A stretch of 33,627 bases of DNA, from IMG/VR virus record IMGVR_UViG_3300023314_000006, positions 1-33,627 of that record; one strand, 5' to 3'. Origin of the DNA: a virus. Taxonomy: Duplodnaviria; Caudoviricetes. This document shows, piece by piece, positions 1,565 through 33,625 of this stretch. The stretch's first letter is position 1. Each line of letters starts with the position of its first letter. The notes below the pieces were generated by a model that saw only the letters and a list, made by a program, of their open reading frames with translations, searched no databases and had not been told where the DNA came from. Made by a program: the position numbers and the translations under genes.

Positions 1565-2539
1565 TTAAAAAAGTGATGGAGCTTTTTGAAATCTTAGCTT
1601 ACATAGTTTCATATTCTCTATAGCCTGTTTAAAGTAGGTATCTTTAAGCTCTACACCTACTCCTTTTCGGCCTAAAGATACGGGGCTGTACACTTCACTG
1701 CCTACACCCATAAAAGGCGTAAATACGGTTTCTCCGGGGTTGCTGTATAGTTCAACACAACGGTCTATTACATCGAGTTGCAAGGGGTGTACATGCTTTT
1801 CATCGTCCTCATCTTTTGCATCACGGAACGGGAGTACGTTGTCTATCCTTATATCATCCCATACAGATGAGGCGTAACGCTGCCAGATGATGTGAGATAG
1901 TTTGTTTGTCTTAGGGTCTTGCCATCCTTCATAGTCTTTCTTTAGCTTTTCGTATGTACCGTATGTTTCAGTATGACCCTCTAAAAATGGTCGCTCACCA
2001 AAGTATTCGGTAAGACCTACAGGGTGTGTTACCGGAACTTCATTTACCCCGTTTCGCTTGAATATAAGCAGATAATCTGGCATGGCCGTAAAGCACTCTG
2101 TACTATCTTCTACTATCAGTTTGTGCATCAGTGACTTTACCATAGTACGCATACGAACTTTTAATGGCTCCTTCCATATGGTTACAGTATTCCGATGCGC
2201 AAACCCGTGTTTCTGATGCAGTTTTTTCACCTCATGCGGCAAGTCGTACATGTTACCGTCTTTGCCTATTATGTCAGTGATGTGAACGCAATTGATACGC
2301 CCCGGATTTGTGACCCTTGCCATTTCCTTTATAAGAAATTCATATTGCTCAAGGAATTGCTCTTTGCTTGTGCAATTACTAAAGTCGTTATCATGGCTAC
2401 TGTAATTATACAGACCTCCAAAAGGCGGAGAATATATAGACAGGTCAATAGACTTATCAGGAAGTGTAGGCAGTACGTACATGCAATCTCCTTCATAGAT
2501 CGCGTAATTGTCGGTTATTATTTGGTTTCTTACAGCCAT
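1565..2539 (-). CDS. Amino (N4-C/N6-A) DNA methyltransferase, beta arrangement
   Basis: Motif IV DLSIYSPPF, then HVHPLQ, then SAM-binding motif FTPFMGVGSE. Confidence 0.92.
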   Translation of the reverse strand: MAVRNQIITDNYAIYEGDCMYVLPTLPDKSIDLSIYSPPFGGLYNYSSHDNDFSNCTSKEQFLEQYEFLIKEMARVTNPGRINCVHITDIIGKDGNMYDLPHEVKKLHQKHGFAHRNTVTIWKEPLKVRMRTMVKSLMHKLIVEDSTECFTAMPDYLLIFKRNGVNEVPVTHPVGLTEYFGERPFLEGHTETYGTYEKLKKDYEGWQDPKTNKLSHIIWQRYASSVWDDIRIDNVLPFRDAKDEDDEKHVHPLQLDVIDRCVELYSNPGETVFTPFMGVGSEVYSPVSLGRKGVGVELKDTYFKQAIENMKLCKLRFQKAPSLF

Positions 2540-3888
2540 GATGGTGTTGATATTGATTTATTAAATGGTGATTGTTTTATTTCGTACTTGGCATTAAGGT
2601 TAGCATTAAGGCTGTTGAATAATTCATTTGCCTTTGTTGTTTTAACCTCTATAGATTTTAGCACCCTTGATTGACCGTTACTGCTTACCCTGTCTGCAAT
2701 TACTTCTTTTTGCTGTCCGTACCTCCAAAATCTGCGTATGGCCTGATACCATTTTTCATAGCTGAAATCAGGGAAATATACCGTATGGTTGCAGTGTTGC
2801 CAGTTAAGTCCGAATGCGGTTATAGTTGGCTTTGTGACCAGTTTTTTTATTTCTCCATTTGCGAATGCAAGTAGTATCTCTTCTTTTTTGTCGATGTGCA
2901 TACTACCTGTTATCTGTATCAGCGACTTATCCATCTTGCAAAGCGTTTCAGCCTCCGGGTTATAGTTCACCCAGAAAACTGATGTTTCGTGTTGCGTAGC
3001 CAGTGATATAGCTTTTTCGCACCGTTCATTTATTGTGGCTTTTTCTTCAAAAGATATTTCAGAACGGGTACGGGCTATCCTGTTGAATAGTTCTCCTGGT
3101 AAAGGCTTCCTGTTAAGTATTACGTGGTCATTAACTACCAATTCAGGCAAAGTAAATCCATCGTCACTAAATCCAAGGTCTGACGGTTTACGCATGGATA
3201 TACTCCATCCGCTTACCCACTCGAAAAACGCTTTTTTGGCATGACCTTTAAGTATCCATTCTGTTCCTATATGCTGCGGGCTTATCGTATCTTCATTATT
3301 GGTGAAGAACTTTGTGAGCATATCCGTGTATCCTAAGTAACCCAATGCCTCGGAGCTGGTACCCAACTCTGTAAAGTCATTAGGCGAGGGTGTAGCGGTG
3401 AACAGGTAGCGATATTTTACTTTCTTCAAAAAGGCGGTGATGCGTGTTTTTAGTTCCCCTTTGAAGTTTTTGAGTATGCTACTTTCATCGAGTATTACGC
3501 AATCAAAATCGCTTGGGTCAAAGTGCTGTAGCCGTTCGTAATTGGTAACTACTATTTTTGATTTGTACTTTCCATCCTTGCTATACTCGATATCGTCTAT
3601 CTCGAATTTGGCAGACTCTTTTATAAACTGAAAAGCAACTGCCAAAGGAGTAAGGATAAGAGCGGGCTTGTTGGTATGCCTGATGTAGTTTACCGCCGTG
3701 ACAAGCTCAATGATAGTTTTCCCGTGTCCTGTATCAAGAAAACATGCCGCCCTGCCTTTTTCTATAGCATAATTAGCCACGTACTTTTGTTGCGGGAATA
3801 ACTTGTCAGGAATATATAAGGCGGGTATTCCTTGCCGTCCTATGCTGTGCTTTTTTGTTTCTAAAAACTGTTCGTATGTTAGTCCCAT
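2530..3888 (-). CDS. SNF2-like superfamily 2 helicase
   Basis: Walker A DTGHGKT, Walker B ILDESS, TATPSPND, FGLNWQHC, QAIRRFWRYGQ. Confidence 0.9.
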   Translation of the reverse strand: MGLTYEQFLETKKHSIGRQGIPALYIPDKLFPQQKYVANYAIEKGRAACFLDTGHGKTIIELVTAVNYIRHTNKPALILTPLAVAFQFIKESAKFEIDDIEYSKDGKYKSKIVVTNYERLQHFDPSDFDCVILDESSILKNFKGELKTRITAFLKKVKYRYLFTATPSPNDFTELGTSSEALGYLGYTDMLTKFFTNNEDTISPQHIGTEWILKGHAKKAFFEWVSGWSISMRKPSDLGFSDDGFTLPELVVNDHVILNRKPLPGELFNRIARTRSEISFEEKATINERCEKAISLATQHETSVFWVNYNPEAETLCKMDKSLIQITGSMHIDKKEEILLAFANGEIKKLVTKPTITAFGLNWQHCNHTVYFPDFSYEKWYQAIRRFWRYGQQKEVIADRVSSNGQSRVLKSIEVKTTKANELFNSLNANLNAKYEIKQSPFNKSISTPSWL

Positions 3889-6857: not shown

Positions 6858-7784
6858 TTAATCAGTACACCCGCCACTGTCGCAAGATGCTCCGCTTTCT
6901 CTTAGCATTTCTATAGTGTATGGTGTGTTTATTGCATGCTCTCCTATTTCTGCGTAGGTAGTCCGGCTGCCCAACCACGTGCCCATGCCTTTTGTTTCCT
7001 GCTGCGCAAACCAGTTCATTTTATCAGGCTGCGTATTCCACATTATAGCCAGCGTGTCCGGCTTTTTATGAAAACATCCAACGCAATTGCTTATTTCAGG
7101 AAATTCTATTTTTCGCTTAGTGTCGAAAAGTGTATCAGCGCCTACGTACTGCTCCCGCCAAAACTCTTTTATTATGCCGCTGGTTATGTTGTCTTTCACT
7201 AACGGGAATGTGCAAAATCTATAGTTGAAATCCTCATGGCGTTGCAGCCTATTCCCTTTTGTTGAGCATGATACGGGTATCTTAAAGTGTGTTGGATTGC
7301 CGTTCATGAAGTTCTCCATTCGCTCAAATTCATCGTATCTGAACCCTATCCGCATCTTACATTTTTCGCCTATCTCCTGCATCCACCAATAAAATATAGG
7401 CTCCAGTTTCATTTCCGTTGTACACCACCGCCTTCCCCATGACGGCAGCCGCTGCTGGTGCCCTAATGCTACTCTGTCTGCTTTCTTGTCGATAAGCGTG
7501 TCAAAACTTTTACCCCTTACCCACGTAATCTCTTTACCTAAGAATTGTTCAAGGTCGCGTAGCACTATGAGCGTCTTATCGTCCTCTGCCGTTGCGATAA
7601 ATTCGCCATATACACTTGCATACTTTTCTAATTTTGCATTTACATACTGCACCAGTGATTTATCTTTCGGTGTACATGCTGGGTCGTCTACGCATACCAG
7701 AGAAAATACCTCATAGTCGGCGGGGTACTTAGCAGCGAGATATGAAGATGTTTTACCGCCAGAAATAGAGTTTACGGTTTTCAT
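6858..7784 (-). CDS. PAPS-reductase-like / PP-loop protein with Cys clusters
   Basis: SISGGKTSSY PP-loop, RWCTTEMK, IGFRYDE..R, SNCVGCFHK, C-terminal CDSGGC. Confidence 0.8.
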   Translation of the reverse strand: MKTVNSISGGKTSSYLAAKYPADYEVFSLVCVDDPACTPKDKSLVQYVNAKLEKYASVYGEFIATAEDDKTLIVLRDLEQFLGKEITWVRGKSFDTLIDKKADRVALGHQQRLPSWGRRWCTTEMKLEPIFYWWMQEIGEKCKMRIGFRYDEFERMENFMNGNPTHFKIPVSCSTKGNRLQRHEDFNYRFCTFPLVKDNITSGIIKEFWREQYVGADTLFDTKRKIEFPEISNCVGCFHKKPDTLAIMWNTQPDKMNWFAQQETKGMGTWLGSRTTYAEIGEHAINTPYTIEMLRESGASCDSGGCTD

Positions 7785-9723: not shown

Positions 9724-9836
9724 TACTGTTTCGGTTTTAAAATCACTAATAATATTGCTCTTGTTCTCCTGTCCCGCAGGTTGTTCAGGAATGACACCGT
9801 GAGCTTAGGTGTCCGGCGTGCGTGGCGGCGGCTCAT
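9723..9836 (-). CDS. Small Arg-rich hypothetical protein (37 aa)
   Basis: MSRRHARRTPKLTVSFLNNLRDRRTRAILLVILKPKQ; ATGA and TAATG coupling fill the gap exactly. Confidence 0.45.
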   Translation of the reverse strand: MSRRHARRTPKLTVSFLNNLRDRRTRAILLVILKPKQ

Positions 9837-10000
9837 GATAGCAGGTCATTTATTTTAACCATTTGTATAACCAGTACCAGTGCCATAATCCCCCCTAAAA
9901 TTATATTGAATACTCCACCAGTAGTGTAACATGAGTGGCACACAATACATATCACTATCATTATCGCGACATTCCATATAAATGCTAATAGTAGTTTCAT
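9833..10000 (-). CDS. Small two-TM membrane protein (55 aa)
   Basis: MKLLLAFIWNVAIMIVICIVCHSCYTTGGVFNIILGGIMALVLVIQMVKINDLLS. Confidence 0.55.
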   Translation of the reverse strand: MKLLLAFIWNVAIMIVICIVCHSCYTTGGVFNIILGGIMALVLVIQMVKINDLLS

Positions 10001-17767: not shown

Positions 17768-17795
17768 ATAAGGCGTATCATCCGATACGCCTTAT
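17768..17795. terminator. Hairpin between convergent arms, likely bidirectional terminator
   Basis: ATAAGGCGTATC-ATCC-GATACGCCTTAT, perfect 12-bp stem. Confidence 0.75.
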
Positions 17796-17796
17796 T

Positions 17797-18282
17797 CTAT
17801 AGACCCCGCCGTAAGCCCACAGGGTGCAGGGTATGCTTAATAAATCCGAGCAGCCCCGCATCATGTATAGTCCTGCGTTTCAGCCGAACCACTGCGTACC
17901 CGTCACGTGACCCATCCGTATTGCTGTTACCTTCAATTGTTACCATCGTCCCTTTTGGTAGTACGCTCTCCACAAAACCCGTATGCCCCTTGCCGTGGCC
18001 GTGGTCATAGATGAACTGATAGCCTGGTAGAACGTTCTCCGGTGTTGCGTCCTTAGCGAGTAGCTTGTTCGGACTATTGCGCCAACATTCAAGACAGCCG
18101 CCGGTGCGATGCGACTTGACCCCACCCTCTTTGAGTACACGGTACACGAACGCCTGACACCATGCGGCGGGGAACGCTATCCCGACCGATGCGAGGCACG
18201 TCTGCACGAATGCGCCCCAATTGCTGCCCCGTGGTACTTCCTCTTTGCCGATGTATGATTGTGCGATTTGTAGGTGGTTCAT
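17797..18282 (-). CDS. CHAP-domain endolysin
   Basis: A.SYIG.EE.P.GSN, AWCQAFV (catalytic Cys), GHTGFVE (His), TIEGNSN. Confidence 0.9.
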   Translation of the reverse strand: MNHLQIAQSYIGKEEVPRGSNWGAFVQTCLASVGIAFPAAWCQAFVYRVLKEGGVKSHRTGGCLECWRNSPNKLLAKDATPENVLPGYQFIYDHGHGKGHTGFVESVLPKGTMVTIEGNSNTDGSRDGYAVVRLKRRTIHDAGLLGFIKHTLHPVGLRRGL

Positions 18283-18695
18283 GTGGTTGTTTTATTAGCC
18301 GCAGCAGCATAACCGCTGCCACCCGTAGGCGTTACTTTATACTCTGACTTATTGGCGTTGAATACTTTTTGGGTTACGGATAGGTAGTCAGAAGGGTCGC
18401 CGAGGCTTACACCGTCCATATGAGCGACAAGGTTTGAGGCGAACTGCATAGCAGTGTATTTGCGCTTGTCGGGGTCTGTTCCGGCCTGTTCAAATAGTGC
18501 TATGAATTTCTGTAGTAATGCCTCTATAGCGTACTTTAGCGCATCGTCCTGTTGCCCGGGTATGAGTATGTTCAACGCCGTTACAGGGGCTGACTGTAGT
18601 ATTTTCAGAGCAGATGTAGACACGGCTAATGCCTTACGTGCGAGCCTACGAAGGTCGCCGTGTATGATGCCGAATTTGAGTAGGAACTTCTTCAT
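18279..18695 (-). CDS. Hypothetical protein, possibly lysis-associated
   Basis: Start MKKFLLKF; ATGA-coupled to the endolysin. Confidence 0.7.
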   Translation of the reverse strand: MKKFLLKFGIIHGDLRRLARKALAVSTSALKILQSAPVTALNILIPGQQDDALKYAIEALLQKFIALFEQAGTDPDKRKYTAMQFASNLVAHMDGVSLGDPSDYLSVTQKVFNANKSEYKVTPTGGSGYAAAANKTTT

Positions 18696-18790
18696 TATCG
18701 TATAATTGAGTAGATGACCGCCATAGCGAAGCACCCGCATAAGAGTACCAGTACGGCGAATTTAGATGTGTTCGGTGGTGTGTGTTCCAT
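18695..18790 (-). CDS. 31-aa single-TM peptide
   Basis: MEHTPPNTSKFAVLVLLCGCFAMAVIYSIIR; TAATG-coupled to the next gene; follows TATCTTCG. Confidence 0.55.
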   Translation of the reverse strand: MEHTPPNTSKFAVLVLLCGCFAMAVIYSIIR

Positions 18791-18795
18791 TGTTG

Positions 18796-18803
18796 CGAAG
18801 ATA
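18796..18803 (-). promoter_or_regulatory. Putative -7 element for the endolysin transcription unit
   Basis: TATCTTCG directly after a terminator; no clear -33 element. Confidence 0.45.
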
Positions 18804-18805
18804 AT

Positions 18806-18839
18806 AAAAAAGCCCGTACATTTCTGTACAGGCTTTTTT
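18806..18839. terminator. Intrinsic terminator with bidirectional geometry
   Basis: AAAAAAGCCCGTACA-TTTC-TGTACAGGCTTTTTT. Confidence 0.85.
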
Positions 18840-18840
18840 A

Positions 18841-19122
18841 TCAATTCCAAGGCCGCTTAAATTCCGCGAACAATATCATCAATTCTTTCCTTCTCGGTGT
18901 CATTGGTATTGGTGGGGAATCCTTCATTTTAGGCATCCTACTTACATATTCAGCCCCGCACCTTGAACATGGCGGGACTTCCAAATCAATTGTTTCTTTG
19001 TTTAGCACGGCCTTGCTCCAATCATGCACATGCCCCTTAAATAGACAAAGTATGTGGTCTATTATGGTGGGGTATTTAGCTTTTCTAATGTATGTCGTAG
19101 TGTCTACTATCTCTCTTTTCAT
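18841..19122 (-). CDS. Hypothetical protein with a putative metal-binding motif
   Basis: ILCLFKGHVHDW...CSRCG. Confidence 0.6.
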   Translation of the reverse strand: MKREIVDTTTYIRKAKYPTIIDHILCLFKGHVHDWSKAVLNKETIDLEVPPCSRCGAEYVSRMPKMKDSPPIPMTPRRKELMILFAEFKRPWN

Positions 19123-19124
19123 AG

Positions 19125-19313
19125 CTAATTCATGTGAAATTCAGGCTCTCTTACATCAAGGCAATCGAAATTATTCATACCGTAAATTGCAAGCAGTTCG
19201 GCATCGGCTTTATCTCTCGCCTCTTCGCTATTAACCGCCCACACCGTAACGTCCCTGTATTGCATGTCAGGTAGGCCAATGTATGTTGCCACGTATGTTC
19301 TTGTTAGTCCCAT
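19125..19313 (-). CDS. Hypothetical protein
   Basis: VTVWAVNSEEARDKA. Confidence 0.6.
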   Translation of the reverse strand: MGLTRTYVATYIGLPDMQYRDVTVWAVNSEEARDKADAELLAIYGMNNFDCLDVREPEFHMN

Positions 19314-19361
19314 TATGCGGGAGTATTTTCGTCTATATCATACCCACCTATCGACGGAAGT

Positions 19362-19823
19362 TTAAGCCCCCCGCCCACCTATCGATGATAGGATGATGGT
19401 TATTTCTTTAGCAACCACCTCAATTGGCAGGCTTTCCATCGCTACCCTACTGAGTTTACGGGAAGCGTCTATTGTTTTTCCCGTATTTTTTTCCCACCAT
19501 ACACTTTCGGCATCATAGCACATAGTGATGTCTGCCCCATTTTTTGAAAGACAAATAGCCGCATTTATGCCCATGATCTGGTTGATACTCTCTATTTTAG
19601 ATATTACCCCAGTTTTCTTAACAGGAGATATTTCAAGCCCATAAGATAGTTGACTACCCGCTCTGTTTGCGTCAAAGTTAACAGAGCAAAAACCGCTACC
19701 GCCACCCATAGCATTGAAGAACTGCTCACATAGTTGGTCTCTTACATCATCGGAAGGAACAACATTAAATTTAATTACGGGATCATTTCCAGTCCCCAAT
19801 GCGACCTTTAAAGAGCTTTTCAT
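19362..19823 (-). CDS. Hypothetical protein (moron)
   Basis: 153-aa ORF with an A-rich leader and upstream TACCTTAG. Confidence 0.7.
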   Translation of the reverse strand: MKSSLKVALGTGNDPVIKFNVVPSDDVRDQLCEQFFNAMGGGSGFCSVNFDANRAGSQLSYGLEISPVKKTGVISKIESINQIMGINAAICLSKNGADITMCYDAESVWWEKNTGKTIDASRKLSRVAMESLPIEVVAKEITIILSSIGGRGA

Positions 19824-19901
19824 TTCTTATTTATTTATAGACTGCCGGAATTGGTCAAATCATATGGCTAAGGTAGTAAGTAATTCTTACAAACTGAAAT
19901 T

Positions 19902-20063
19902 TTCGTACCTTTACTCACTCATAACTCTGTGTTGTCTTCCATCCCCTTAAACCTGCTGCGGCTAACAGCAGGTTTTTTCGTACCTTCACCCCATCAGCCT
20001 TGCATGCCTCTCGATGAAGCACACTTGCGGGGCTTTTTTATTTGCGGATTGTTCGTATATTTG
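19902..20063 (+). promoter_or_regulatory. Three -7-like elements at 75-bp spacing with two intervening hairpin/T-tract units
   Basis: TTCGTACCTTTA (19902), TTCGTACCTTCA (19977), TTCGTATATTTG (20052). Confidence 0.55.
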
Positions 20064-20096
20064 TAGCCCGCAGGGTAGCGGTAAAAACTTCGAACG

Positions 20097-20333
20097 ATGG
20101 AATTTGCAAAGTTATTTAAGGTGTCAGATATACACCAGTTACTATATACGTTAGACATAGACGATATAGAAGAAACATATGCAGTTACGGTAAGGTGTGA
20201 TAACGACGGTATAAAAGTAGAGGCCACGATTACCGGGAAAACAAAGGAGAGTGCTACAGCTTTGTTTGAAGGAACAGGGCAAGAACAGGCCGATAAAATG
20301 TATTCTTCATTATTGCAACAATTCGTTTCGTAG
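20097..20333 (+). CDS. Hypothetical protein (moron, opposite strand)
   Basis: MEFAKLF...QLL; own TATATTTG element and terminator. Confidence 0.7.
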   Translation: MEFAKLFKVSDIHQLLYTLDIDDIEETYAVTVRCDNDGIKVEATITGKTKESATALFEGTGQEQADKMYSSLLQQFVS

Positions 20334-20356
20334 TTTGTCGAAGTTCTACGACAACA

Positions 20357-20389
20357 AAAGCCCGCCAGTCTAACTGTGCGGGCTTTCTT
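20357..20389. terminator. Intrinsic terminator
   Basis: AAAGCCCGC...GCGGGCTTT between convergent genes. Confidence 0.75.
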
Positions 20390-20460
20390 GTGCATGTTCA
20401 AATTACATACAATAATATCAATTAAAAAGTTACACTTAAAGCCTGTTAAAAATTGGTTAA

Positions 20461-20778
20461 CTACTTACATTCCTCGTTCAATACATTCGCCTTTGTTTCC
20501 TTGCTCATCAGGTCAGGGTCGGTAGTTGTTGATGCAGCACCTAACCCCAATGCCGAGAACGCCGCACCCGCTACGACACATACGCTGTTGATGTTAGCCC
20601 ATACAGGCTGCGTGGCGGGCAGAACGTCACACTGATATACTACGATGTAGCCTGCCATAAACGCCGCTACAATACCGCATATACGGGCTACAATAGCGTA
20701 GCCTTTCGGCGACCGGCTACGGAACCGGGCAATTATCATTTGCAGGGTCGATAGCTGCGTGGGGTTGAGTTGTTTCAT
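20461..20778 (-). CDS. Putative holin (two TM segments)
   Basis: Start MKQLNP; RFRSRSPKGY then two hydrophobic segments. Confidence 0.65.
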   Translation of the reverse strand: MKQLNPTQLSTLQMIIARFRSRSPKGYAIVARICGIVAAFMAGYIVVYQCDVLPATQPVWANINSVCVVAGAAFSALGLGAASTTTDPDLMSKETKANVLNEECK

Positions 20779-20782
20779 ATAC

Positions 20783-21112
20783 CTACTTATTTTTAGTGAA
20801 CACCCCGTAAATACTATCCAATACCGGCTTCCAGTTGAGCGTAGCAATGTACATCAGTATCTTATCGCTGCATAGCGTGGCTATAGGCACTATATATGGG
20901 GCATACGGCTTGTAATGATACTCACACCACATGGATGCGAGAAAACCGATAAAGCAAGCGACACCCGTAGCACCTATTATGTACCAGATGGAAATCTTTT
21001 TCCTCTTCACGATATCAAAGCTGAATTTCCCCATAACTCCTATCATTACATAGAAAATATAAGACCACCACTTAGTCAGGAATGTTAATGTTTCTTCTTT
21101 AATATCGTGCAT
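20783..21112 (-). CDS. Putative holin / membrane protein
   Basis: Two to three hydrophobic segments with a KRKK loop; an alternative start lies at 21127. Confidence 0.6.
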   Translation of the reverse strand: MHDIKEETLTFLTKWWSYIFYVMIGVMGKFSFDIVKRKKISIWYIIGATGVACFIGFLASMWCEYHYKPYAPYIVPIATLCSDKILMYIATLNWKPVLDSIYGVFTKNK

Positions 21113-21423
21113 CTTCTGATGGTGCATATAGTTATCAATACTGCGAATGCCAATTCATTGAGTTGCAATCTTGTAGGGTCGAAAAACATCTCATCCAGCA
21201 AGTTACTAATTATCAGCCAAAGTGTAATTTCAAATGTTATCTTATTGCGGGGGAATAAATGGGCAAGTATCAGGAACAAAAACGATGCCGATTGCCCCGT
21301 ATAGTACCACCATCTACCCACATCAGAATACCTACCGCCATCCATTAATGAACCCGTGCCGATATCTATGATACGCGGCACGGTATTCAGTAAAATTGAT
21401 AGCAGGCATAATATGCTATACAT
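21085..21423 (-). CDS. Multi-pass membrane protein
   Basis: About four hydrophobic segments; SNLLDEMFFDP. Confidence 0.7.
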   Translation of the reverse strand: MYSILCLLSILLNTVPRIIDIGTGSLMDGGRYSDVGRWWYYTGQSASFLFLILAHLFPRNKITFEITLWLIISNLLDEMFFDPTRLQLNELAFAVLITICTIRRCTILKKKH

Positions 21424-21695
21424 TATCTGTCGTTGGGTCTGCCGCCCACGAAATCAACCGCCTTAACGGTATATACGGCCGACTGCGCCCCGCTTATGGT
21501 TAACGTCTGGTCAGTGAACGTTGGCAGGTTCGTACATAGGTATAAATTGCCCCTTTTGCTTTTCTCTATCCAGTAGTCACCGGAATTATTACAGGCGAAT
21601 GTAGAGGCCAATACGGGTGTCCCTAATGCGTTGCCGTTGACGTGGGTTATCGTGTCGTTGGCAATGTCCCTGATGTTGAATGATACTTTGTCCAT
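21423..21695 (-). CDS. Hypothetical protein
   Basis: 90 aa ending FVGGRPNDR; TAATG-coupled. Confidence 0.65.
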   Translation of the reverse strand: MDKVSFNIRDIANDTITHVNGNALGTPVLASTFACNNSGDYWIEKSKRGNLYLCTNLPTFTDQTLTISGAQSAVYTVKAVDFVGGRPNDR

Positions 21696-21706
21696 GATGT
21701 GTGTTT

Positions 21707-22354
21707 TTATTGTTCTGTTGCTGTTACGTTTACTGCTTGTGATGCTACGTTGCTATATGTTGGGAGTAACCCTATTACATCTGACCTCAACTGCACATAC
21801 ACTGAAAATCCTGTAGTGGTGCTACTCGTTAGTAGTATCGTCATTTTGTTTGACCCGCCAACGATATTGTATTGCACGTTTGGAGTAGCGGCAAATGCAG
21901 TGCTATAAGTTACGCTGTACACCCCGCTTGCATTAGTGCTGCCGGCGTATCTGTCTATCCGCGGTATAGCAGGGAACGTAGCGTATGTGCCGTTACCCCT
22001 TATGTATTGGCCGGACGTGCCGGAAGGGGCAAGATATGCGCTGTTGTCATAGCTTACAGTAGTACCTGCCATACGCACAAGTCCGGTGCCGCTAAGTGCG
22101 GCCTGCCGTGTGGCTATCTGATTAGCTATATACCTCTTAGCGGCATTGCCCGTGATGAGGTTAAGCGTTGACCAATCAGCAGCCGTAGTGTCTGTGCTGA
22201 ATGCAGTAATGATATTAGCCCCTATTTTCAGGCCGTCCCCCATATACATGGAGCTTACCTGCGCCGTGGCGGGATGGGTGTTCCTGCCTATCAGCAGATA
22301 CATTGACATAGCGGATAGTAGTAGCGTAATGATGCCTATGATGTTGTTTCTCAT
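21707..22354 (-). CDS. Fibre-like protein with an N-terminal signal or anchor
   Basis: Hydrophobic N-terminus then ATA-Q; GTSGQYIRGNGTYATFP fibre motif; C-terminal VTYSTAFAATPNV...TTTGF like fibre-tip domains. Confidence 0.7.
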   Translation of the reverse strand: MRNNIIGIITLLLSAMSMYLLIGRNTHPATAQVSSMYMGDGLKIGANIITAFSTDTTAADWSTLNLITGNAAKRYIANQIATRQAALSGTGLVRMAGTTVSYDNSAYLAPSGTSGQYIRGNGTYATFPAIPRIDRYAGSTNASGVYSVTYSTAFAATPNVQYNIVGGSNKMTILLTSSTTTGFSVYVQLRSDVIGLLPTYSNVASQAVNVTATEQ

Positions 22355-22953
22355 TGTGTGGTAAAGTATATGGTTGTGGTTGAAGTGATACCAGTGAAAT
22401 AAAAGGTAGTAGCCGTAGCATATCGCCTGTTGACATAGAAATTAACAAGCCCCGAACCGCCAACCAGCGGCCATGCATTTAGTATAGCCGTGCCGGCCGG
22501 AACAATGTCTACGCTTATATTCTCATTGCTGACACTGGAAATGTCAAAGGATAGCATCTTATGGCCTGCTGGCAATACGTATGTAGTGTTACCAGTTACT
22601 ACCTTTTTTTCTAAGAAAGAAAACTCTCCATTGCGCATAGCTATGTATGGCTTTTGCAACGTGTATATATTCTGAACAGTTCCCTGAAAGAACCGTTCCG
22701 GCCATATGCACACGGTATCAGGCAGCCAACCAACAGCCGTAATATATCCAAAATCTGTAGGGAATTGCGGTATTGAGTTAGGGTCAACCCAAAAAATATT
22801 GTTGGTATCTACATTACAGTAGAACGTATTGATGCCCACCGTCTTATTTTGCATCCTTAGCGCAAAACTATCTGGGATAGAGATAAGCGGGCTGCATTGT
22901 CCATAAGCCCCAGCCGATACGGCTAATAGTAGTATTAGTAATAGTGTTTTCAT
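22351..22953 (-). CDS. Signal-peptide-bearing hypothetical late protein
   Basis: MKTLLLILLLAVSAGAYG-Q; beta-rich. Confidence 0.7.
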   Translation of the reverse strand: MKTLLLILLLAVSAGAYGQCSPLISIPDSFALRMQNKTVGINTFYCNVDTNNIFWVDPNSIPQFPTDFGYITAVGWLPDTVCIWPERFFQGTVQNIYTLQKPYIAMRNGEFSFLEKKVVTGNTTYVLPAGHKMLSFDISSVSNENISVDIVPAGTAILNAWPLVGGSGLVNFYVNRRYATATTFYFTGITSTTTIYFTTQ

Positions 22954-23774
22954 TTTACTGCGATTTCGTCTTTTAAAAGGTTACTTATTGCCAATGCCTG
23001 CGCCGCCGATACAGTTAGCCCGATGGTATAGCCGTATATGCTCCTGTTGCTCTTGTTGCCCAAGAACCCTGTAGCCGTGCCGCCTATATTGATATTGCCA
23101 ACAGGCAATCCCGTAGTAGTATTAGAGAACGGATTGACACTATACGCTGCGCCGCCTTTGTATATGCTTATCTGAGTGCTGTTGTTTCTTGTGATGGTGA
23201 ACACGTCAGCAGTGCCTGTAGACACCTGCGATGTGCTGGTAGATGGGTTAGTCCCAAGAGATGCGAAGAAGTTGCCGCCCGTATAGTTCAGGCGCATCAC
23301 ATCAGCAAGTGAGGTCGTGCCGGTGAAGAACTCCCCGCAAGCACATGCGCCACTACTGGTCAATGTCGAATAAGTGTAGTGTATGCTGTTCTGCGGCATA
23401 GATGATCGTACCACATCCGACACCATGAATTGTGTTGAGCCGTTCAATGCTATGTTCCCATCATTTTGAACAGGCGCACCGCTGAATGTAGACGTGCCAA
23501 GCGTGACGTAATCAATGGCGTGTGCAGTACCTGTATTCCCAATAACAGGATTATGCGCCAGTACCGTACCTGTCAGGTCAACGAACTGTTTGCCGCCTAC
23601 CGATCCATTCAGGCTGAACCGTGTTGCTATAGTGCGCAACATGAGTATATCCTTAGCCCGCAGCGTTACCCCTGCCGACTGCAACGTACGGGCATAGGCG
23701 ATGCTCTGCGGGCTGTCGTAGGTCTGCGCCGTAGCGGTCAGAGCGGTTAGGAGTATGAGTAGTATAGTGCGCAT
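22950..23774 (-). CDS. Signal-peptide-bearing beta-sandwich (lectin/LamG-like) late protein
   Basis: MRTILLILLTALTATA-Q; LNGSTQF, ITRNNSTQISIYKGG, INIGG, IG.T.S pattern. Confidence 0.65.
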   Translation of the reverse strand: MRTILLILLTALTATAQTYDSPQSIAYARTLQSAGVTLRAKDILMLRTIATRFSLNGSVGGKQFVDLTGTVLAHNPVIGNTGTAHAIDYVTLGTSTFSGAPVQNDGNIALNGSTQFMVSDVVRSSMPQNSIHYTYSTLTSSGACACGEFFTGTTSLADVMRLNYTGGNFFASLGTNPSTSTSQVSTGTADVFTITRNNSTQISIYKGGAAYSVNPFSNTTTGLPVGNINIGGTATGFLGNKSNRSIYGYTIGLTVSAAQALAISNLLKDEIAVK

Positions 23775-24061
23775 CAGTTAACAGCTTCGTATGTTGCCTC
23801 GAAAATATCGGGCTTGCATGGGTAAAATTCACCCTTCACGCCTTTGATAATGTAGTCCCCTATAGATGCTATATGCTCGCCCTCTAACGTTTTGATTATA
23901 AGCCCGCCAACTACTTTTGCATGGTCTATTTCAAAATTTTCTCCTTTTGATTTAAGATAATCATTAGGGTTACCTAATAGAAAATCGTTCATTTCTCGGT
24001 GATTTTCTCCCGTCCAAAGAACCGCCTCAATAACTACTGGTTTTTTTCTGTACTGCTTCAT
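23774..24061 (-). CDS. Conserved small phage protein
   Basis: YRKKPVVIEA..WTG.N...IKTLEG..IASIGDYIIKGVKGEFYPCKPDIFE.TYE. Confidence 0.9.
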   Translation of the reverse strand: MKQYRKKPVVIEAVLWTGENHREMNDFLLGNPNDYLKSKGENFEIDHAKVVGGLIIKTLEGEHIASIGDYIIKGVKGEFYPCKPDIFEATYEAVN

Positions 24062-24071
24062 ATTATTTGTT

Positions 24072-25679
24072 TTAGTACGTGGTATAATCTATTGTGACCC
24101 TATTAGCGTAATCGTTCCATCGCAGGTAGTATATCGTTAGTCCATTGGCCGCCGTGTTGCATCCTGGTTGTGCGCCTGTTCCAAGTGCGCTGCTGAATGT
24201 CTGACCACGGAAGTATATAGCACTGCCGCCGGTAGCGTTCTGTAGCACCGTGAGCATTACGGTTGATGTGAAGCCACCACCACCCGCAGCGGTTGCGCCG
24301 AACCCTGCAAGTGTCACGGTATCCGCTGCGAAGTTGTCGGTAGTGAAGCCCTGTGAGTGGCCTGTAGTAGCCGTTAACGTGGTTGCATGGGTAGTGAGGG
24401 TTAGTGTGTTGGTAGTTACAGCGGCGATGGCAACCGTGGGGTTAACCGATGCCGTGCCCGTGAGCGTAAGCCCATCCCCTACATACACTACAGTAGCCGA
24501 CCCGCTACCGGCTGATATAGCCACGGTAGTAATGGTTGTTATCCTCCCCTTGCTATCTACAGTAAGCACCTGATTCACCGTGCCGCTGCCATACGTGCCC
24601 GGCGTGGCGTTAACGGTCTGTAATGTGGCGGCTGCACTGCCGGGGCCGGTCGCTGATACATCGCCTGTAAGTGCTGTTATATAGTTTCCTGTATTTTGTT
24701 TCAGATTAATGCGCCCGCTCAGTCCGGCAGTGTCGGCACTATTTAGTTTGAGGTTAATTCTACCTGACAAACCTGCCGTATCTGAACTATTCAATTTTAA
24801 ATTTATCCTGCCAGATAGCCCCGCCGTATCACTTGAATTTAGCTTTAAGTTTATCCTATTGGATAGTCCAACGGTATCCGCATAGCCCATTTTCAAGTTG
24901 ATACGGTTGCTCAAAGATGCTGTATCCGTTGCTGTAAGTTTAAGATTTATCCTGTTCGACAACCCCACGGTGTCGCTGTAATTCATCTTGAGATTGATGC
25001 GATTGCTTAGGCTTGCCGTGTCCACACTGTTGAGCTTTAGATTTATCCTGTTGCTTAATGAGGTGGTATCTGTACCCGCCGGTAAATGACTATTGAAGTA
25101 ATCGAGCGTGATGGGGTTTTTCGCAGTGTTACTATCAGCACGTATAAAAAACAAAGCCTGAGAATTGACCCCTGTAATGTAATTGCCGAATAGGTACGTG
25201 TACACATCATTTATCCATCCGTTTGTAAGTCCTGTAGTAGGTACGTGCTGATTGTCCGGCGAACCGCCTACGCTGTCAACGGCTGATAGGTTTAACTTAT
25301 TGCCTATAGCCCCGTATATGTTCGCACGGCTGGTATCTGACCTGTATTTGGTGTAGAAAGTGGCACTATCCCCGCCGCCACCGTTCATGATGATGTATGT
25401 ACTATCTGTTGGAGATAGACCGCCTGAGCCGCCGCCACCATTAAGCATTACCGCCATACCGTTACTGTCTATACCCATGTACCTTACGGTATGAGGTATG
25501 GCGTAGAACGGCATCCGCAGCGTACCGGCTATAAACTGGCTCCATAGGTTGCTATCCAATGTCTGTGTATTCCCGTGAGGGTACACCTTCAACCGCGGCT
25601 GCAAAACACCGCCGGACGACCGTTGCCCGAAGCACGCAGAAGACAAAGTAAATGCAAGTATGAATAATATTATTCTCAT
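24072..25679 (-). CDS. Fibre protein with a signal peptide and 16-aa repeats
   Basis: MRIILFILAFTLSSACFG-Q; 8 repeats; GTYGS...LTVDSKGRIT fibre motif; G/T/A-rich. Confidence 0.8.
   Translation of the reverse strand: MRIILFILAFTLSSACFGQRSSGGVLQPRLKVYPHGNTQTLDSNLWSQFIAGTLRMPFYAIPHTVRYMGIDSNGMAVMLNGGGGSGGLSPTDSTYIIMNGGGGDSATFYTKYRSDTSRANIYGAIGNKLNLSAVDSVGGSPDNQHVPTTGLTNGWINDVYTYLFGNYITGVNSQALFFIRADSNTAKNPITLDYFNSHLPAGTDTTSLSNRINLKLNSVDTASLSNRINLKMNYSDTVGLSNRINLKLTATDTASLSNRINLKMGYADTVGLSNRINLKLNSSDTAGLSGRINLKLNSSDTAGLSGRINLKLNSADTAGLSGRINLKQNTGNYITALTGDVSATGPGSAAATLQTVNATPGTYGSGTVNQVLTVDSKGRITTITTVAISAGSGSATVVYVGDGLTLTGTASVNPTVAIAAVTTNTLTLTTHATTLTATTGHSQGFTTDNFAADTVTLAGFGATAAGGGGFTSTVMLTVLQNATGGSAIYFRGQTFSSALGTGAQPGCNTAANGLTIYYLRWNDYANRVTIDYTTY
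24699..25070 (-). repeat. Eight 16-aa (48-bp) repeats DTxxLS(N/G)RINLKxxxx
   Basis: Visible in translation; strongly diverged at synonymous sites. Confidence 0.95.
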
Positions 25680-26152
25680 TATAATTGTGTGCTAATTAAT
25701 GACCATTGGTAGTTTGCTCCCGGTATTAATGCGTTACCTCCCGCAGTAATACGTATTACTGCGGCCGAAAGAGAAAATATAATCACCTGATTGGGCCCCG
25801 ATAGCAGGGATGCATTGCTGTTGGCTGGCGACCACACCACGGAAGGGGCTGCGGTTTTGGGCGTTCCGTATGTTATTTCGGCTACAGTAGCGGCAGATGC
25901 CGGGGTTGTACCAATAGTTACGCTCACCGTCATGTTATTATCATTGCCCACAAGAATAGATACGCTGCCCCCAGTTCCCAAGCCTGCACCTGCCGTAATT
26001 GTCGGAGTGCTGGTAGTTCTGAAAGGGAACTTACTCTTAAGGTAGTTGACAAGAGAAGAGACGGGGAATAGGCAATCCAATGGCCCCGTGCGAACGCCAA
26101 CTAAAGCATCATTATCTCCTATTGCCTGCCCAGGTATTTCGCTTAGTTTCAT
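25679..26152 (-). CDS. Putative virion fibre/adaptor protein without a signal peptide
   Basis: MKLSEIP...GDNDALVGVR N-terminus; PTITAGAG.GT.GSVS..GND beta-rich domain. Confidence 0.6.
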   Translation of the reverse strand: MKLSEIPGQAIGDNDALVGVRTGPLDCLFPVSSLVNYLKSKFPFRTTSTPTITAGAGLGTGGSVSILVGNDNNMTVSVTIGTTPASAATVAEITYGTPKTAAPSVVWSPANSNASLLSGPNQVIIFSLSAAVIRITAGGNALIPGANYQWSLISTQL

Positions 26153-26769
26153 GGTTCTATTACGTCTAAAAAGTACCCTATATCTGTGTTGTTAATTCGA
26201 ACTTCAGTCATTACCTCGCTGCATATCCCCCCCTTATTGGTCACTATGTTTATTTCCGGAACCTCTATGCAGTACTCTATCATGGCGGTAACCTCATTTG
26301 TGGCATCCTGCCATTGCTGCGCCTGATATACCTCAACCTTATTTACATAGGCCTGCTTATTGAATGGCGGCGCAAAACCAAGCCTTATGTATGCCTGATT
26401 AGCAAGGATGGCGCGGATGGCGCGGATAAGCCTGTGTATGTCTACGGTTGCTATCTGGTCGCCCGCTTTAACCGCTGTTGTCTTTGCCCGGGTTGATAGT
26501 TCGATATTGTAGGTGTACAAACCATGCACCTGCGTTATCTCCCTGCTCTTCTCATCATATTGGCCGCCCTGAAACCTTATATTCACATAGGGCAATTCAG
26601 TGGGTACATTTGGCGGATCTATGCGCTCTAACCATACTTTATCAGGCGCGTCAAAAGTGGGATCTAATGCTTTTTGATTTGCAAGCTCCAGCAGCAGCAC
26701 CGCGCCGAGCGCATCTCGGATGCGTTCAAATGAAGCGGGTGGTATGATACCGTTTATCTTTGCGGGCAT
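26149..26769 (-). CDS. Putative neck / tail-terminator protein
   Basis: FERIRD.LG.VL..EL.NQ...ER..P...ELP.VN; position after head genes. Confidence 0.55.
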   Translation of the reverse strand: MPAKINGIIPPASFERIRDALGAVLLLELANQKALDPTFDAPDKVWLERIDPPNVPTELPYVNIRFQGGQYDEKSREITQVHGLYTYNIELSTRAKTTAVKAGDQIATVDIHRLIRAIRAILANQAYIRLGFAPPFNKQAYVNKVEVYQAQQWQDATNEVTAMIEYCIEVPEINIVTNKGGICSEVMTEVRINNTDIGYFLDVIEP

Positions 26770-27473
26770 TAGAAACTATATATTGGCGCGTTAATGTTAA
26801 ATGCTATCTGGTCTCCGGGAACAATAGACCCGTAAGTGAATGTGAATGTGCCATTGTTATCGAACCGCTCTTGATAATTATCGTTTCCGACAATGAATGG
26901 CACAAGTACAAAGCAGTTAACTGTATCTCGCACGTAAGGCACGGTAAATGAGCCGTCCTCGTTAAGCGCATATTGCAGTGGTATCACATCTCCATTATCC
27001 AGGGTCTGCGTAGTGTCGTCCGGCGTGGTTACAATATCAACATATACCTTCAGTTCGCCGTAGCCCACTATGACCTTTACAGGGATCGTAGGCGCATCGT
27101 AATCATCGAGTATCAGCACTATCAGTCCTATATTTTCGTCCGGCCTGTTCTGCCTTACTGAGTATGTCCACTCCAGCCCGCTTACATCAGTCCAAGTAAC
27201 TTTATGCTGCAACAGGTCTACTTCATTCTGCATGTTACGGGTAGGATAACCCGCCTCTATCAGTGCCGCCTCGCTTACTGCTATACTGGCAGTTCGTGCC
27301 ACACTCCTGAACCCGTTCTCATCCTGCTTCAGCATGTGCTTTGTCTGCAATGCCGATACGGTCTTTGTGATAGTATTGTCAGGGTTAACGAATATTACTG
27401 ATGTGCCAAAACCCGTAACGTTATTGGTAGTTATACGCTGTATAAGTTGCTGCGCACGGTTGGTAATATTCAT
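26769..27473 (-). CDS. Putative head-closure (gpFII-like) protein with a C-terminal extension
   Basis: N-terminal beta domain ending PDENIGLIVLILDD, plus about 105 extra aa. Confidence 0.55.
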   Translation of the reverse strand: MNITNRAQQLIQRITTNNVTGFGTSVIFVNPDNTITKTVSALQTKHMLKQDENGFRSVARTASIAVSEAALIEAGYPTRNMQNEVDLLQHKVTWTDVSGLEWTYSVRQNRPDENIGLIVLILDDYDAPTIPVKVIVGYGELKVYVDIVTTPDDTTQTLDNGDVIPLQYALNEDGSFTVPYVRDTVNCFVLVPFIVGNDNYQERFDNNGTFTFTYGSIVPGDQIAFNINAPIYSF

Positions 27474-30781: not shown

Positions 30782-32452
30782 TTATTCCTCTTCTTTTTCA
30801 GTGGCTTCCGTATCGTCCTCTGTTAGCTTATCCTGCTGCTCGATGCCGAGCGCGTCTCCCTCTTCCATTTCCTTAGCGTACTGGCTCATATTCGCCACTG
30901 CATCACCAAGGCCAAGGGCTTTCGCCGCCTGCTCGAAAGTGCCTATCGGCAGATGTTTGCTACCTTCTCCGAGTATAGCCCTCCAATAGTTGGCCTCCTT
31001 CAGCGGGTCTATATGTCCGAGCTTTTCACCCTCCCAGATACACATACGGTAAGCGACAAGAACATACTCGTTCTTTTCCTGCAATGCTTGTAAATAGCCT
31101 GGCGCGTTAATCTCTAAGCTATAGACCCATATATCCATTTGCAGGTTGTATATAGGCTGCAAAAAGTGGTTGCCCTGATAACCCCACTCCCTTGCTAATC
31201 TCATGCCCTCTGCAAGGAATGCGGCACGTGATGCGCTGAAATTGCTATCGAACTTGCTTGCTACTATTTCCGGCGGTATGCCGGCCAGTGCGGCCTGCTC
31301 TTCTATCACCGCTTTATTGAACGGTTCAAAGTGTAACTGATTCCCGCTCTCCAATGCTACCAGTTCAGACCCCGGAGGCATGTTGGTAACAGTGCGGTTT
31401 GTAGACGCGTTAACGGTGTTCGCTATGGCCTTACCCTCTGCGCTGTAATCGAGCTGACTGGATGCGCTCGGACGGTCTATATCATAAGCCTTTGTGAGGT
31501 CTTTAATTCGCGGGTCTTCTCCGGTAGAATTAAGGTCATGCTTAATGAAGTACGGGGCTTTGGCTATCTCTTCTGCCGCCGATACCGTGGCTGATTTGTA
31601 GCGGTTCAATTGGCTTGCAGTTTCCATGCCTGCCGATAAGCGCGGCAACCCTTTTTCGCTATCAACCCTGAAATCCTCATCAGTGAGAATATAGGCCATA
31701 AGACTGCCGGACTTCTTACCGTAAGCCTCTACCCTTTGGTAGTTAAGCCCGTAGCCTGTACGCACGTAATATGCTACGTGGCGGCCTGTGCTGTCTATCT
31801 CTACACCCCATCTTACGCGGTTCCCTGTGTCTGGATTTATGCGCTCAATAGCGTTGTAGTTTATCTTATCCTCAGTAGCGAATGCGAAGTTAATCGGTGT
31901 TTGCAGGTATATGCCATCTACAAGCTGAACCTTCACCACATTATTCACAGGGCGCAGGATAACCAATACGGTACCGGCCACAATGCTGTTGAGGTATGCC
32001 CGTGCATGTACTTCACCGAGCGTATTTTTACCGGCATAATCAGCCATACGGGAATTGGCATAGAGGTTCCACATATCTTCCACCTCTGAATTGAACTTTT
32101 CAAGTTCAAGGTCTATGCCGCTCTTTTTTAGGTAGTTCACCACCGGCGCACATTGCAGCTTCAGGCCACCACCAATAACAGTATCTTTCAGCCGCTTCAT
32201 GATGGTTTTGTAGTTGCTACTCTCCAAGTACAATTGCCATGACCGTATCATAAGGGTGTCATGGTCTACCACATAATTTATCGGTGGTGCCATTTCTCCT
32301 AATGCGTTCTGGCCGTTGTACGGGGCAGTATATGCAGCAGTGCCATAGCCCACACCGATACCAGCTAATGCGGTCGGCTGGGCTTGCTCTTCTACCGGTT
32401 CGGCCTTTGCCTTTTTACTCTTAAATGTTATCTCTAAACTACCTATACGCAT
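30782..32452 (-). CDS. Portal protein, lambda gpB family
   Basis: L.IRSWQLY, VIGGGLKL, GVEID..GRHVAY, GIP.E, NFSASRAA, IDPLKEA. Confidence 0.92.
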   Translation of the reverse strand: MRIGSLEITFKSKKAKAEPVEEQAQPTALAGIGVGYGTAAYTAPYNGQNALGEMAPPINYVVDHDTLMIRSWQLYLESSNYKTIMKRLKDTVIGGGLKLQCAPVVNYLKKSGIDLELEKFNSEVEDMWNLYANSRMADYAGKNTLGEVHARAYLNSIVAGTVLVILRPVNNVVKVQLVDGIYLQTPINFAFATEDKINYNAIERINPDTGNRVRWGVEIDSTGRHVAYYVRTGYGLNYQRVEAYGKKSGSLMAYILTDEDFRVDSEKGLPRLSAGMETASQLNRYKSATVSAAEEIAKAPYFIKHDLNSTGEDPRIKDLTKAYDIDRPSASSQLDYSAEGKAIANTVNASTNRTVTNMPPGSELVALESGNQLHFEPFNKAVIEEQAALAGIPPEIVASKFDSNFSASRAAFLAEGMRLAREWGYQGNHFLQPIYNLQMDIWVYSLEINAPGYLQALQEKNEYVLVAYRMCIWEGEKLGHIDPLKEANYWRAILGEGSKHLPIGTFEQAAKALGLGDAVANMSQYAKEMEEGDALGIEQQDKLTEDDTEATEKEEE

Positions 32453-32757
32453 CTTCTTCCGTATCTTAAATTTTGTTCAGGAATATGGCGAACCTGCCGC
32501 CCATTAAGTCTGCTTACGTACCTCTGCCTGATGCTTTCAAAGGCATCTATAGCATTGCTTATTTCTTTTACGCCGCGGTATTTGCAGGTAACCTTTGTTT
32601 GCCCCGTATCAAGATAGTACTCTGTAAGGTCGCTATTACCGGCGGCACTCAACGAGGCCAAAAATAGCGCATCGATAACGGCATCTATTGCAGCTATTTT
32701 AGCCTCTGTTGTCGTGCAGCTTTGCACATATATTGCCGATGATGAATATTCTACCAT
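32443..32757 (-). CDS. gpW-like head completion protein
   Basis: IAAIDA.I..L...EY.LDTGQT....YR; directly upstream of a lambda-type portal. Confidence 0.6.
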   Translation of the reverse strand: MVEYSSSAIYVQSCTTTEAKIAAIDAVIDALFLASLSAAGNSDLTEYYLDTGQTKVTCKYRGVKEISNAIDAFESIRQRYVSRLNGRQVRHIPEQNLRYGRRCV

Positions 32758-32759
32758 GA

Positions 32760-33251
32760 TCAGTTAGTTAATACGTTTGTTGTCTTAGCCCCTGTAATAT
32801 TTAAAGGAGCAGGCGGAACATAAGCCCCTCCCGCTCCGGCTATTCCGGCGGTAATAGCTGCATCAAGGCCTGCAAGATACGTAGCTAAGGCGGTATTCAA
32901 GCCCTCCCATTGCGTAAAATGATTTACAGGTGTGCCGGTGCCGATGGTTATGTTTGTAGCGGTGGCATATACGTAGTATTTTAGCGCGCCTGATGTGTCG
33001 GTGCTGTACATCATACTCTCCCCCTCATTCACGGGCTTTGCGGCCTTTACGATGTAGCCCACTATCACATTATCCATGCGGTTAGCGGTGTCCATATACA
33101 CCGCCGTAGTCTTCGCTATGGGGCTGCTGACCCATCCATAAGGCGCAACATCATAACACTCCCTTGCGTCCGTCTTGCTGGTAACAAGTGCAGTAATAAG
33201 CCTAAGCCCTGCCTGTATTGCACTGCTTACAACCTTGCTAAGTGCGATCAT
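32760..33251 (-). CDS. Mu gp45-like baseplate spike protein
   Basis: PYGWVSSP...AVY...VIVGY...VNEGES..YS. Confidence 0.65.
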   Translation of the reverse strand: MIALSKVVSSAIQAGLRLITALVTSKTDARECYDVAPYGWVSSPIAKTTAVYMDTANRMDNVIVGYIVKAAKPVNEGESMMYSTDTSGALKYYVYATATNITIGTGTPVNHFTQWEGLNTALATYLAGLDAAITAGIAGAGGAYVPPAPLNITGAKTTNVLTN

Positions 33252-33625
33252 GCGAATATATTTTTAGGCACGTCATTATTAAATACCTCTGGCAATACGC
33301 AATATAACCGGGCTGTCTGGCTTCGCTCATCTGCTTTGTAATCGGCAGTTAGAATAAAGAAACTGGCAGGCTTGTACAAGTGCAATTCAGGGTTTGTTAT
33401 CGAAATAATATCACCGGGCTTCGCTATCTTACCATTAAGTTCCCACCCCTGCATATCTATTATCAAAGGTATAGATTTAAGTTCCTCTGATAAGATATTT
33501 CTTTGGGCTTTATCGGCCTGCGTCCCCGCTGTCAGCATGGCGACCTTTGGCCGAAATCCTAACTTTGGGTTTTCTGGATTGCCGATGGTGTTATTGAATG
33601 CCACACCGAGATAGTTAATCCTGCT
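33248..33625 (-). CDS. Mu gp44/gpP-like baseplate hub, C-terminal part; begins beyond the right edge
   Basis: Frame is open to the edge; QGW..NG...KPG..I.I.NP...F.I....Y..D...TA.L..V.PE.F. Confidence 0.65.
   Translation of the reverse strand, partial: SRINYLGVAFNNTIGNPENPKLGFRPKVAMLTAGTQADKAQRNILSEELKSIPLIIDMQGWELNGKIAKPGDIISITNPELHLYKPASFFILTADYKADERSQTARLYCVLPEVFNNDVPKNIFA

Follow-up and report, generated by a model that had tools for sequence, protein, structure and literature searches.

Why would a tailed phage put export leaders on what look like fibre proteins? On the usual understanding, tail fibres and tailspikes have no leaders and are both synthesised and attached in the cytoplasm, and tailed-phage particles are taken to be finished there. 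The locus that raises the question lies in a single virus record, IMGVR_UViG_3300023314_000006 of IMG/VR, whose 33,627 bases are the whole stretch analysed and are called the window here. Four minus-strand genes encoding proteins of 535, 274, 200 and 215 amino acids (aa) stand in it between a probable tail terminator gene and a set of holin-like genes with a CHAP endolysin, and unlike ordinary tail fibres all four products carry leaders. An earlier note on this DNA had described them as a cluster of fibre-like proteins with Sec-type signal peptides, and the four open reading frames (ORFs), their coordinates, N-termini and quoted motifs were found just as it gave them. The genes and their parts are as follows:

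24072..25679, minus strand: 535-aa fibre-like protein with an N-terminal part, a repeat stalk, a shaft and a beta-rich C-terminal domain; a homologue stands in the same slot of the relative L005
25626..25679, minus strand: its 18-aa leader of the Sec/signal peptidase I (SPI) type with a Gly-Gln site, by our signal rule
24696..25079, minus strand: its eight 16-aa repeats, each with D-T-(A/V/T), conserved as protein and diverged in codons
24504..24695, minus strand: its fibre shaft segment, common mostly to signal-less proteins
22950..23774, minus strand: 274-aa protein with a predicted concanavalin A/LamG-like lectin fold (ESM Atlas)
23727-23774: its 16-aa leader, by the signal rule
22351..22953, minus strand: 200-aa protein with three Cys
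22900-22953: its 18-aa leader, by the signal rule
21707..22354, minus strand: 215-aa short fibre with an H-type-lectin/gp53-like tip at 21710-21967, from a structure model and homologues
22262-22354: its 31-aa leader, by the signal rule; its long hydrophobic core is atypical and it is the least certain of the four

Each leader combines a basic n-region with an uncharged h-region whose best 11-residue Kyte-Doolittle mean is 2.7-3.1, followed by small residues at −3/−1 (C/G, A/A, A/G and A/A) and Gln at +1 in all, and no membrane segment was found after the leader in any of the four proteins. Apart from the atypical length of the 215-aa leader, these sequences agree with the Q-rule, by which Bacteroidota substrates of Sec and SPI have Gln at +1 (PMC5837995). 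The leaders were called with a Sec/Gln signal rule of our own rather than with SignalP, and because the rule was written after the four had been seen and is partly circular, the negative controls matter. It flagged 4 of the 65 called genes of the window, exactly these four (ORFs shorter than 60 aa, including a hydrophobic one of 55 aa at 9833-10000, were not scored), 3 of 1219 core structural genes of relatives, and 0 of 4146 internal Met positions taken as fake starts. No baseplate-fibre gene was flagged (0 of 46), but 38 of 129 proteins of at least 180 aa from the accessory slot past the tail terminator were. The Sec-type leaders with their Gln pattern, as the earlier note had claimed, are thus upheld by the rule and its controls, and such leaders would predict cleavage by SPI and pyroglutamate formation on all four proteins. 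It is conceivable that the leaders go unused, as uncleaved anchors or vestiges on fibres that fold inside the cytoplasm or begin at a start further downstream; the use of our own rule leaves room for this, and the length of the 215-aa leader would suit a membrane anchor. We nevertheless consider it highly improbable, as core genes have almost no Gln +1 leaders, whereas such leaders recur on non-homologous proteins (72 of the best 149 homologues of the tip, 71 of 119 homologues of the repeat and 34 slot proteins in relatives).

The tail terminator protein recovered no relatives as a search anchor, and relatives were collected by capsid alignment, which gave 171 loci with a capsid gene and 123 after 90% clustering, the duplicate of the window being dropped. 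Slot counts refer to the 61 loci, including the window and three cultured phages, that reach at least 2.5 kb past the terminator. A survey of related Bacteroidota phages, proposed in the earlier note, found Gln-leader slot proteins of at least 180 aa in 22 of these 61. The first slot gene could be classified in 53 loci. It encodes a leader protein in 8, a long signal-less fibre-like protein in 19 and a short signal-less protein in 26. Among the 19 loci that open with a long signal-less gene, 17 are without any leader protein (of the other two, L072 is a leader protein with a mis-called start), whereas leader proteins follow in 12 of the 26 loci that open with a short gene (Fisher p 0.02). In the other 14 short-opening loci, many of the opening genes are not fibre genes.

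The two kinds of protein also share N-terminal domains. One such domain follows the leader in L058, L118, L136 and L078 and stands right after Met in L029, L069, L175 and L164 (best E value across the two groups 4.5e-12); a second family occurs with and without a leader at a weak E of 1.6e-4. Members of another, related family are either signal-less fibres of 328-1124 aa or stubs of 152-252 aa, and three of the stubs precede a leader-bearing fibre. From their position, the shared domains are probably virion anchors; against cultured phages, the shared anchor domain gave weak Rhodococcus phage matches only. The signal proteins of relatives include K1-lyase_C above the cut-off in 3 of 34, as well as SGNH esterase, SASA and collagen. 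When 44 hand-sorted loci and the three cultured phages (47 rows, with 14 loci lacking a fibre-like slot gene omitted) are placed in a quick capsid tree, the leader trait changes 13 times, at least 4 of these forced by strong branches, compared with 16.1 for shuffled labels (35 of 500 shuffles as low). Because the changes are barely fewer than with shuffled labels, the trait is either old or often exchanged. All four members of the window's own capsid clade (SH-aLRT 100) have signal proteins in the slot. A small family of 90-105 aa with Gln-type leaders and a coiled-coil look was also seen between fibres and holins in several relatives:

L118 17037-17309: small Gln-leader protein
L058 16747-17022: small Gln-leader protein
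L164 16849-17166: small Gln-leader protein

Two cultured Cellulophaga phages have a comparable arrangement, in which a short signal-less gene is followed by Gln-type leader proteins beside the lysis genes. In phiSM (KC821616), which shares capsid, neck and contractile-tail gene families with the window, gp08 has a Ser-Gln leader and its record carries the note 'structural protein, experimental MS/MS' (tandem mass spectrometry); the same note stands on the signal-less 120-aa gp07 that precedes it and on the leader-bearing gp085-087 of phi18:3 (KC821620). The leader-bearing gp09 and gp14 of phiSM and its endolysin have no such note. Unlike in the window, the phiSM cassette follows the portal rather than the terminator and holds few O-glycosylation sequons, and the records are silent on leaders.

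The exchange of leader cassettes with signal-less fibres at the same spot therefore makes periplasmic maturation and joining at lysis likely, and we favour, with moderate confidence, the reading that the four proteins serve the virion as accessory parts for host recognition, being exported by Sec, maturing in the periplasm and joining particles at lysis. Both export and joining are backed by the swap pattern and by the MS/MS notes on the non-homologous Cellulophaga phage proteins. In the proposed sequence, the host Sec system would export the four proteins, SPI would cleave the leaders, the N-terminal Gln would become pyroglutamate in the periplasm, and host enzymes would O-glycosylate the stalk of the 535-aa protein. 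Having no outer-membrane sorting signal (no NCBIfam or Pfam match to a type IX C-terminal sorting domain was found in the four), the proteins would stay in the periplasm until holin and endolysin open the envelope and they meet finished particles, where they would dock on the neck or on a stub made in the cytoplasm. Attachment to completed particles outside the cell is possible for fibres, as with P22 tailspikes and T4 long fibres. Since the canonical baseplate fibre genes of this phage family are separate and signal-less, the four proteins would be additional appendages. Two signal-less genes are candidates for the stub:

25679..26152, minus strand: 157-aa protein, candidate cytoplasm-made stub or adaptor, a role suggested by position only
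21423..21695, minus strand: 90-aa protein without a family match, second candidate adaptor

The 90-aa protein has a weak phmmer match to phiSM gp07 (E 0.006 in a set of 10 sequences), which we treat as a lead only. By eye, the N-terminus of the 157-aa protein resembles the stubs of relatives and its C-terminus K1-lyase_C, but comparison did not support either likeness.

A broader form of the model, to which we would give an even chance, is a two-compartment assembly in which the particle is built in the cytoplasm with short anchor stubs and interchangeable exported modules, fibres or lectins that are pyroglutamylated and sometimes coated with the host's own O-glycan in the periplasm, snap on during lysis, lineages switching route repeatedly by gain or loss of a leader before the same anchor. 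No description of Sec-routed fibres of tailed phages was found in the literature searched, which consisted mostly of search listings, with subscription papers outside it. If virion proteomics confirms it, the implied route would be new in kind.

Several observations weigh against virion joining. The MS/MS evidence consists of record annotations from one data set, the corresponding notes on phi38:2 and phi47:1 are merely propagated, and no homology of the window proteins to the MS/MS-annotated cultured proteins was found. The mature N-termini of the four window proteins gave no match to the signal-less anchors of relatives. For the 157-aa protein, family searches gave no match and no hidden Markov model (HMM) link to the relatives' stubs was seen, and the 200-aa protein is without a match in family, Atlas and HMM searches. 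That no docking domain was identified on the four mature proteins would suit proteins that are exported without binding virions, building up in the periplasm late in infection and escaping when the cell lyses, to act as free lectins or as decoys that cover receptors on debris or neighbouring cells, or block superinfection. That phiSM gp09 has a leader without an MS/MS note, and that the cassette adjoins the lysis genes in the window, phiSM and phi18:3, fit this as well. However, the signal cassettes substitute for long signal-less fibres instead of being added to them, an N-terminal domain is common to leader and leaderless proteins, and phiSM gp08 and phi18:3 gp085-087 do carry the MS/MS note, so that we regard release as free lectins as doubtful.

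How far the proteins are fibres differs among the four. The earlier note called all of them fibre-like, and this holds for the 215-aa protein by its tip fold and for the 535-aa protein by its shaft; the 274-aa protein is lectin-like instead, and the 200-aa protein has nothing to compare it with. An AlphaFold (AF2) monomer model of the 215-aa protein from a 129-row alignment has a predicted local distance difference test (pLDDT) score of 80, and about 98 in the tip. The tip structurally matches (VIA) the Pam1 tailspike (7eea, Z 9.2), AP22 gp53 (4mtm, Z 8.4) and LKA1 gp49 (4ru4, Z 8.4), with root-mean-square deviations of 1.7-2.5 over 68-77 residues at an identity of 12-13%. It also resembles H-type lectins and R-pyocin fibres in Foldseek, where all matches to the PDB fall short of E 0.001, and it matches viral models annotated as tail fibres; a profile search of the tip alignment against PDB sequences gave no match, and tblastn against cultured phages found only hypothetical proteins of Pseudomonas phages. 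The protein has 716 relatives at E 0.001, and of the best 149, itself aside, 72 have a Gln-type leader, 17 another SPI-type leader, 2 a lipoprotein-type leader and 58 none; H_lectin matches occur in 24 of the 129 aligned members. For the 274-aa protein, the nearest ESM Atlas clusters (0.96-0.97) are mostly viral and unnamed, and the nearest named cluster, with Laminin_G_3 on 24% of its members at a TM score of 0.86, is a lead only. HMM family searches with this protein gave no match and single-sequence AlphaFold no usable model (pLDDT 32), and a likeness to the post-portal protein of FL-1 was not supported on comparison.

In the 535-aa protein, an ordinary fibre part bears a leader, since the homologues of its shaft are mostly signal-less (70 of 117, with 12 carrying a signal and Gln and 35 unclear). 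Its repeats have a mean DNA identity of 55%, and the D, T, L, S, R, I, N, L and K positions vary only synonymously over the 28 copy pairs. Because the codons have diverged, Tandem Repeats Finder does not detect the 48-base repeats; codon choice looks completely scrambled, and recombination among the copies would be limited as a result. D-T is present in 776 of 779 repeat copies of homologues. Gln +1 leaders occur in 71 of 119 repeat homologues, and the 114 repeat-bearing homologues divide into 70 with a leader, 23 with a hydrophobic start, 11 fragments and 10 with no called leader, most of which look truncated or mis-started by eye. Searches of cultured phages by tblastn with the 535-, 274- and 157-aa proteins gave no match. 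The earlier note had allowed for a lipoprotein cleaved at SSA-C, but this alternative proved weak. The lipobox for signal peptidase II is not canonical, with Ser at −3 of Cys16, and the Cys is not conserved. Because the leaders of the two closest homologues, from L005 (853 aa) and P0122, are without Cys and keep Ala-Gln, a lipoprotein is unlikely.

The D-T of the repeats falls within an O-glycosylation sequon, D-(S/T)-(A/I/L/V/M/T), which is restricted to non-cytoplasmic proteins (PMC12871550). The 535-aa protein has 12 sequons against 2.6 expected by shuffling, 8 of the 12 within one repeat family. Outside the repeats, sequons are enriched in the homologues P0122 and P0135 (10 vs about 2.5). 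The excess is 1.56x in signal slot proteins and 0.99x in signal-less ones, with control motifs flat. A glycan coat is weakened by several counts: the part of the 535-aa protein beyond the repeats shows no enrichment (4 vs 1.9, p 0.11); 11 of 34 signal slot proteins have no sequon, while random core proteins reach 1.24x; in tip homologues a swapped control motif is as high (1.42 vs 1.32); shaft homologues show no difference (p 0.31); and the D-T could presumably be a helix cap instead of a sequon. Because the excess is so uneven, we reject glycosylation as a general feature of the cassette and read the excess as true for a subset of its proteins, among which the stalk of the 535-aa protein may be O-glycosylated by host enzymes.

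The repeats bear on another account, in which the proteins are host-derived secreted adhesins, akin to the MAT fibres of Bdellovibrio, displayed on the surface of lysogens or infected cells. Many repeat homologues resemble secreted proteins encoded on host chromosomes (with a FISUMP domain, judged by domains and contig sizes rather than context), and one of these host-type proteins has a weak MAT_N match, below the cut-off at E 8.5e-8. Three leader-bearing relatives (L086, L090 and L139) have tyrosine integrases, two of them inside Bacteroidota chromosomal contigs. These points, too, count against a virion role. Q-rule genes of unknown function in Porphyromonas phages have been read as possible modifiers of the host outer membrane by Matrishin et al. 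(PMC10367356); as in the window, Gln +1 leaders there stand on phage genes, one example being a protein of 144 aa and not a fibre. MAT fibres, chromosomal surface fibres with a conserved N-domain of about 130 aa and often S74 (PMC10769870), likewise combine a signal peptide with phage-fibre-like modules.

The window proteins differ from MAT fibres in lying within a virion operon and in matching neither feature; no match to the MAT N-domain (NF053851), the S74 chaperone or a barrel was found among the proteins of the window. The cassette genes overlap or sit at most about 11 bases apart and promoter-like sites in the late region are no commoner than chance, which is why we take the cluster to belong to the late operon; no strong terminator was found ahead of the hairpin behind the endolysin. 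Tyrosine integrase searches gave no match in five other virus records (two complete, four leader-bearing), the complete signal-bearing relative L051 is without such a match, and the same arrangement occurs in the cultured phiSM. Lysogenic conversion is thus unlikely in our view, and display on the infected cell, which the earlier note had offered beside virion joining, is the less likely of the two; because temperate relatives exist, cell-surface and decoy roles keep some probability.

The phage around the cassette is, by its genes, a contractile-tailed Bacteroidota phage related to Ficleduovirus and phiSM. The minus-strand late operon runs from baseplate hub, spike-position gene, head-tail gene, lambda-type portal, Clp protease, decoration and major capsid through two small proteins, head closure, the probable tail terminator, the accessory slot and three small membrane proteins to the CHAP endolysin. 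The major capsid protein shares 31% identity with its counterpart in Flavobacterium phage FCL-2 and 29% with the one in phiSM. The head, neck and baseplate gene families are those of Ficleduovirus (FCL-2, FCV-1 and FL-1), but FCL-2 has its sheath after the terminator and no signal-bearing fibre, whereas in the window's clade tail genes precede head genes and the slot holds the cassette. With its capsid identity of 31%, long separate branch and other module order, the window belongs, as far as sequence tells, to a lineage related to Ficleduovirus and is not a member of that genus. Both module orders, the Ficleduovirus type and the permuted one, occur among relatives; the permutation, with tail and baseplate genes before head genes (window 32443-33604 and L001 1-10000), frees the slot past the terminator. 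Bacteroidota titles stand on 11 of 14 genome-collection loci of relatives, and two relatives are prophages with chromosomal genes on their flanks in two Bacteroidota bins, from which the Bacteroidota host named in the earlier note is upheld for the relatives and follows by inference for the window. As proteins identical to the window's occur on a 51,124-base contig, about one third of the genome is outside view, probably including terminase, sheath and baseplate genes. The neighbours of the cassette are:

26149..26769, minus strand: 206-aa probable tail terminator or neck gene (phrog_4671, E 1e-25), the upstream border of the slot
23774..24061, minus strand: 95-aa signal-less small phage protein (phrog_419, E 3e-36) inside the cluster and probably unrelated to it
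20461..21423, minus strand: three small holin-like membrane proteins of 112, 114 and about 105 aa; the 114-aa one matches phrog_785 holin (E 0.003) and Phage_holin_3_3 (E 0.002), the other two are assigned by hydrophobicity
17797..18282, minus strand: CHAP-domain endolysin (PF05257, E 6e-8)
17768-17795: terminator hairpin of the late operon after the endolysin, a 12-pair stem with a T run

The 206-aa gene is probably the tail terminator by its position, which is that of FCL-2 gp25 and phiSM gp20, directly ahead of the sheath. The phrog_419 gene, common in phages, sits in mid-cassette, its start and stop codons coupled. The head-closure protein (26769-27473) has 234 aa compared with about 127 in FCL-2 and the PHROG model, the extra C-terminal domain being about 107 aa. 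The lysis region (17797-21423) holds the three membrane proteins and the endolysin with no recognisable spanin lipoprotein, and a 153-aa gene ahead of the endolysin (18279-18740) has a look-alike at the same place in L001. In the early region (1565-3888 and 6858-7784), an N4/N6 DNA methyltransferase is coupled to an SNF2-like helicase, and there is a PAPS-reductase-like gene. The left end (100-231) has runs of G and a (TCCCT)n tract, probably the low-complexity linker in a replication-initiator gene that the end of the contig truncates. One integrated relative (L181 17522-19757 and L182 136-2657, G003:C55) carries about seven reverse-strand genes between the terminase and the probable sheath, one an FkbM methyltransferase by Pfam and the others glycosyltransferase-like by eye.

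The leader-bearing fibre cassette is real, conserved and unexplained in the literature searched, and what this family adds is the pattern by which leader-bearing and signal-less fibres replace each other in one slot. Loading of exported fibres at lysis is directly testable, because the family offers natural pairs, the same anchor with and without a leader, and a cultured member in phiSM. If it is true, host secretion, glutaminyl cyclase and O-glycosylation would shape the receptor-binding gear of these phages, and particles could acquire the fibres of co-infecting phages at lysis. Annotation tools that drop signal-bearing proteins would then overlook receptor-binding proteins of Bacteroidota phages.

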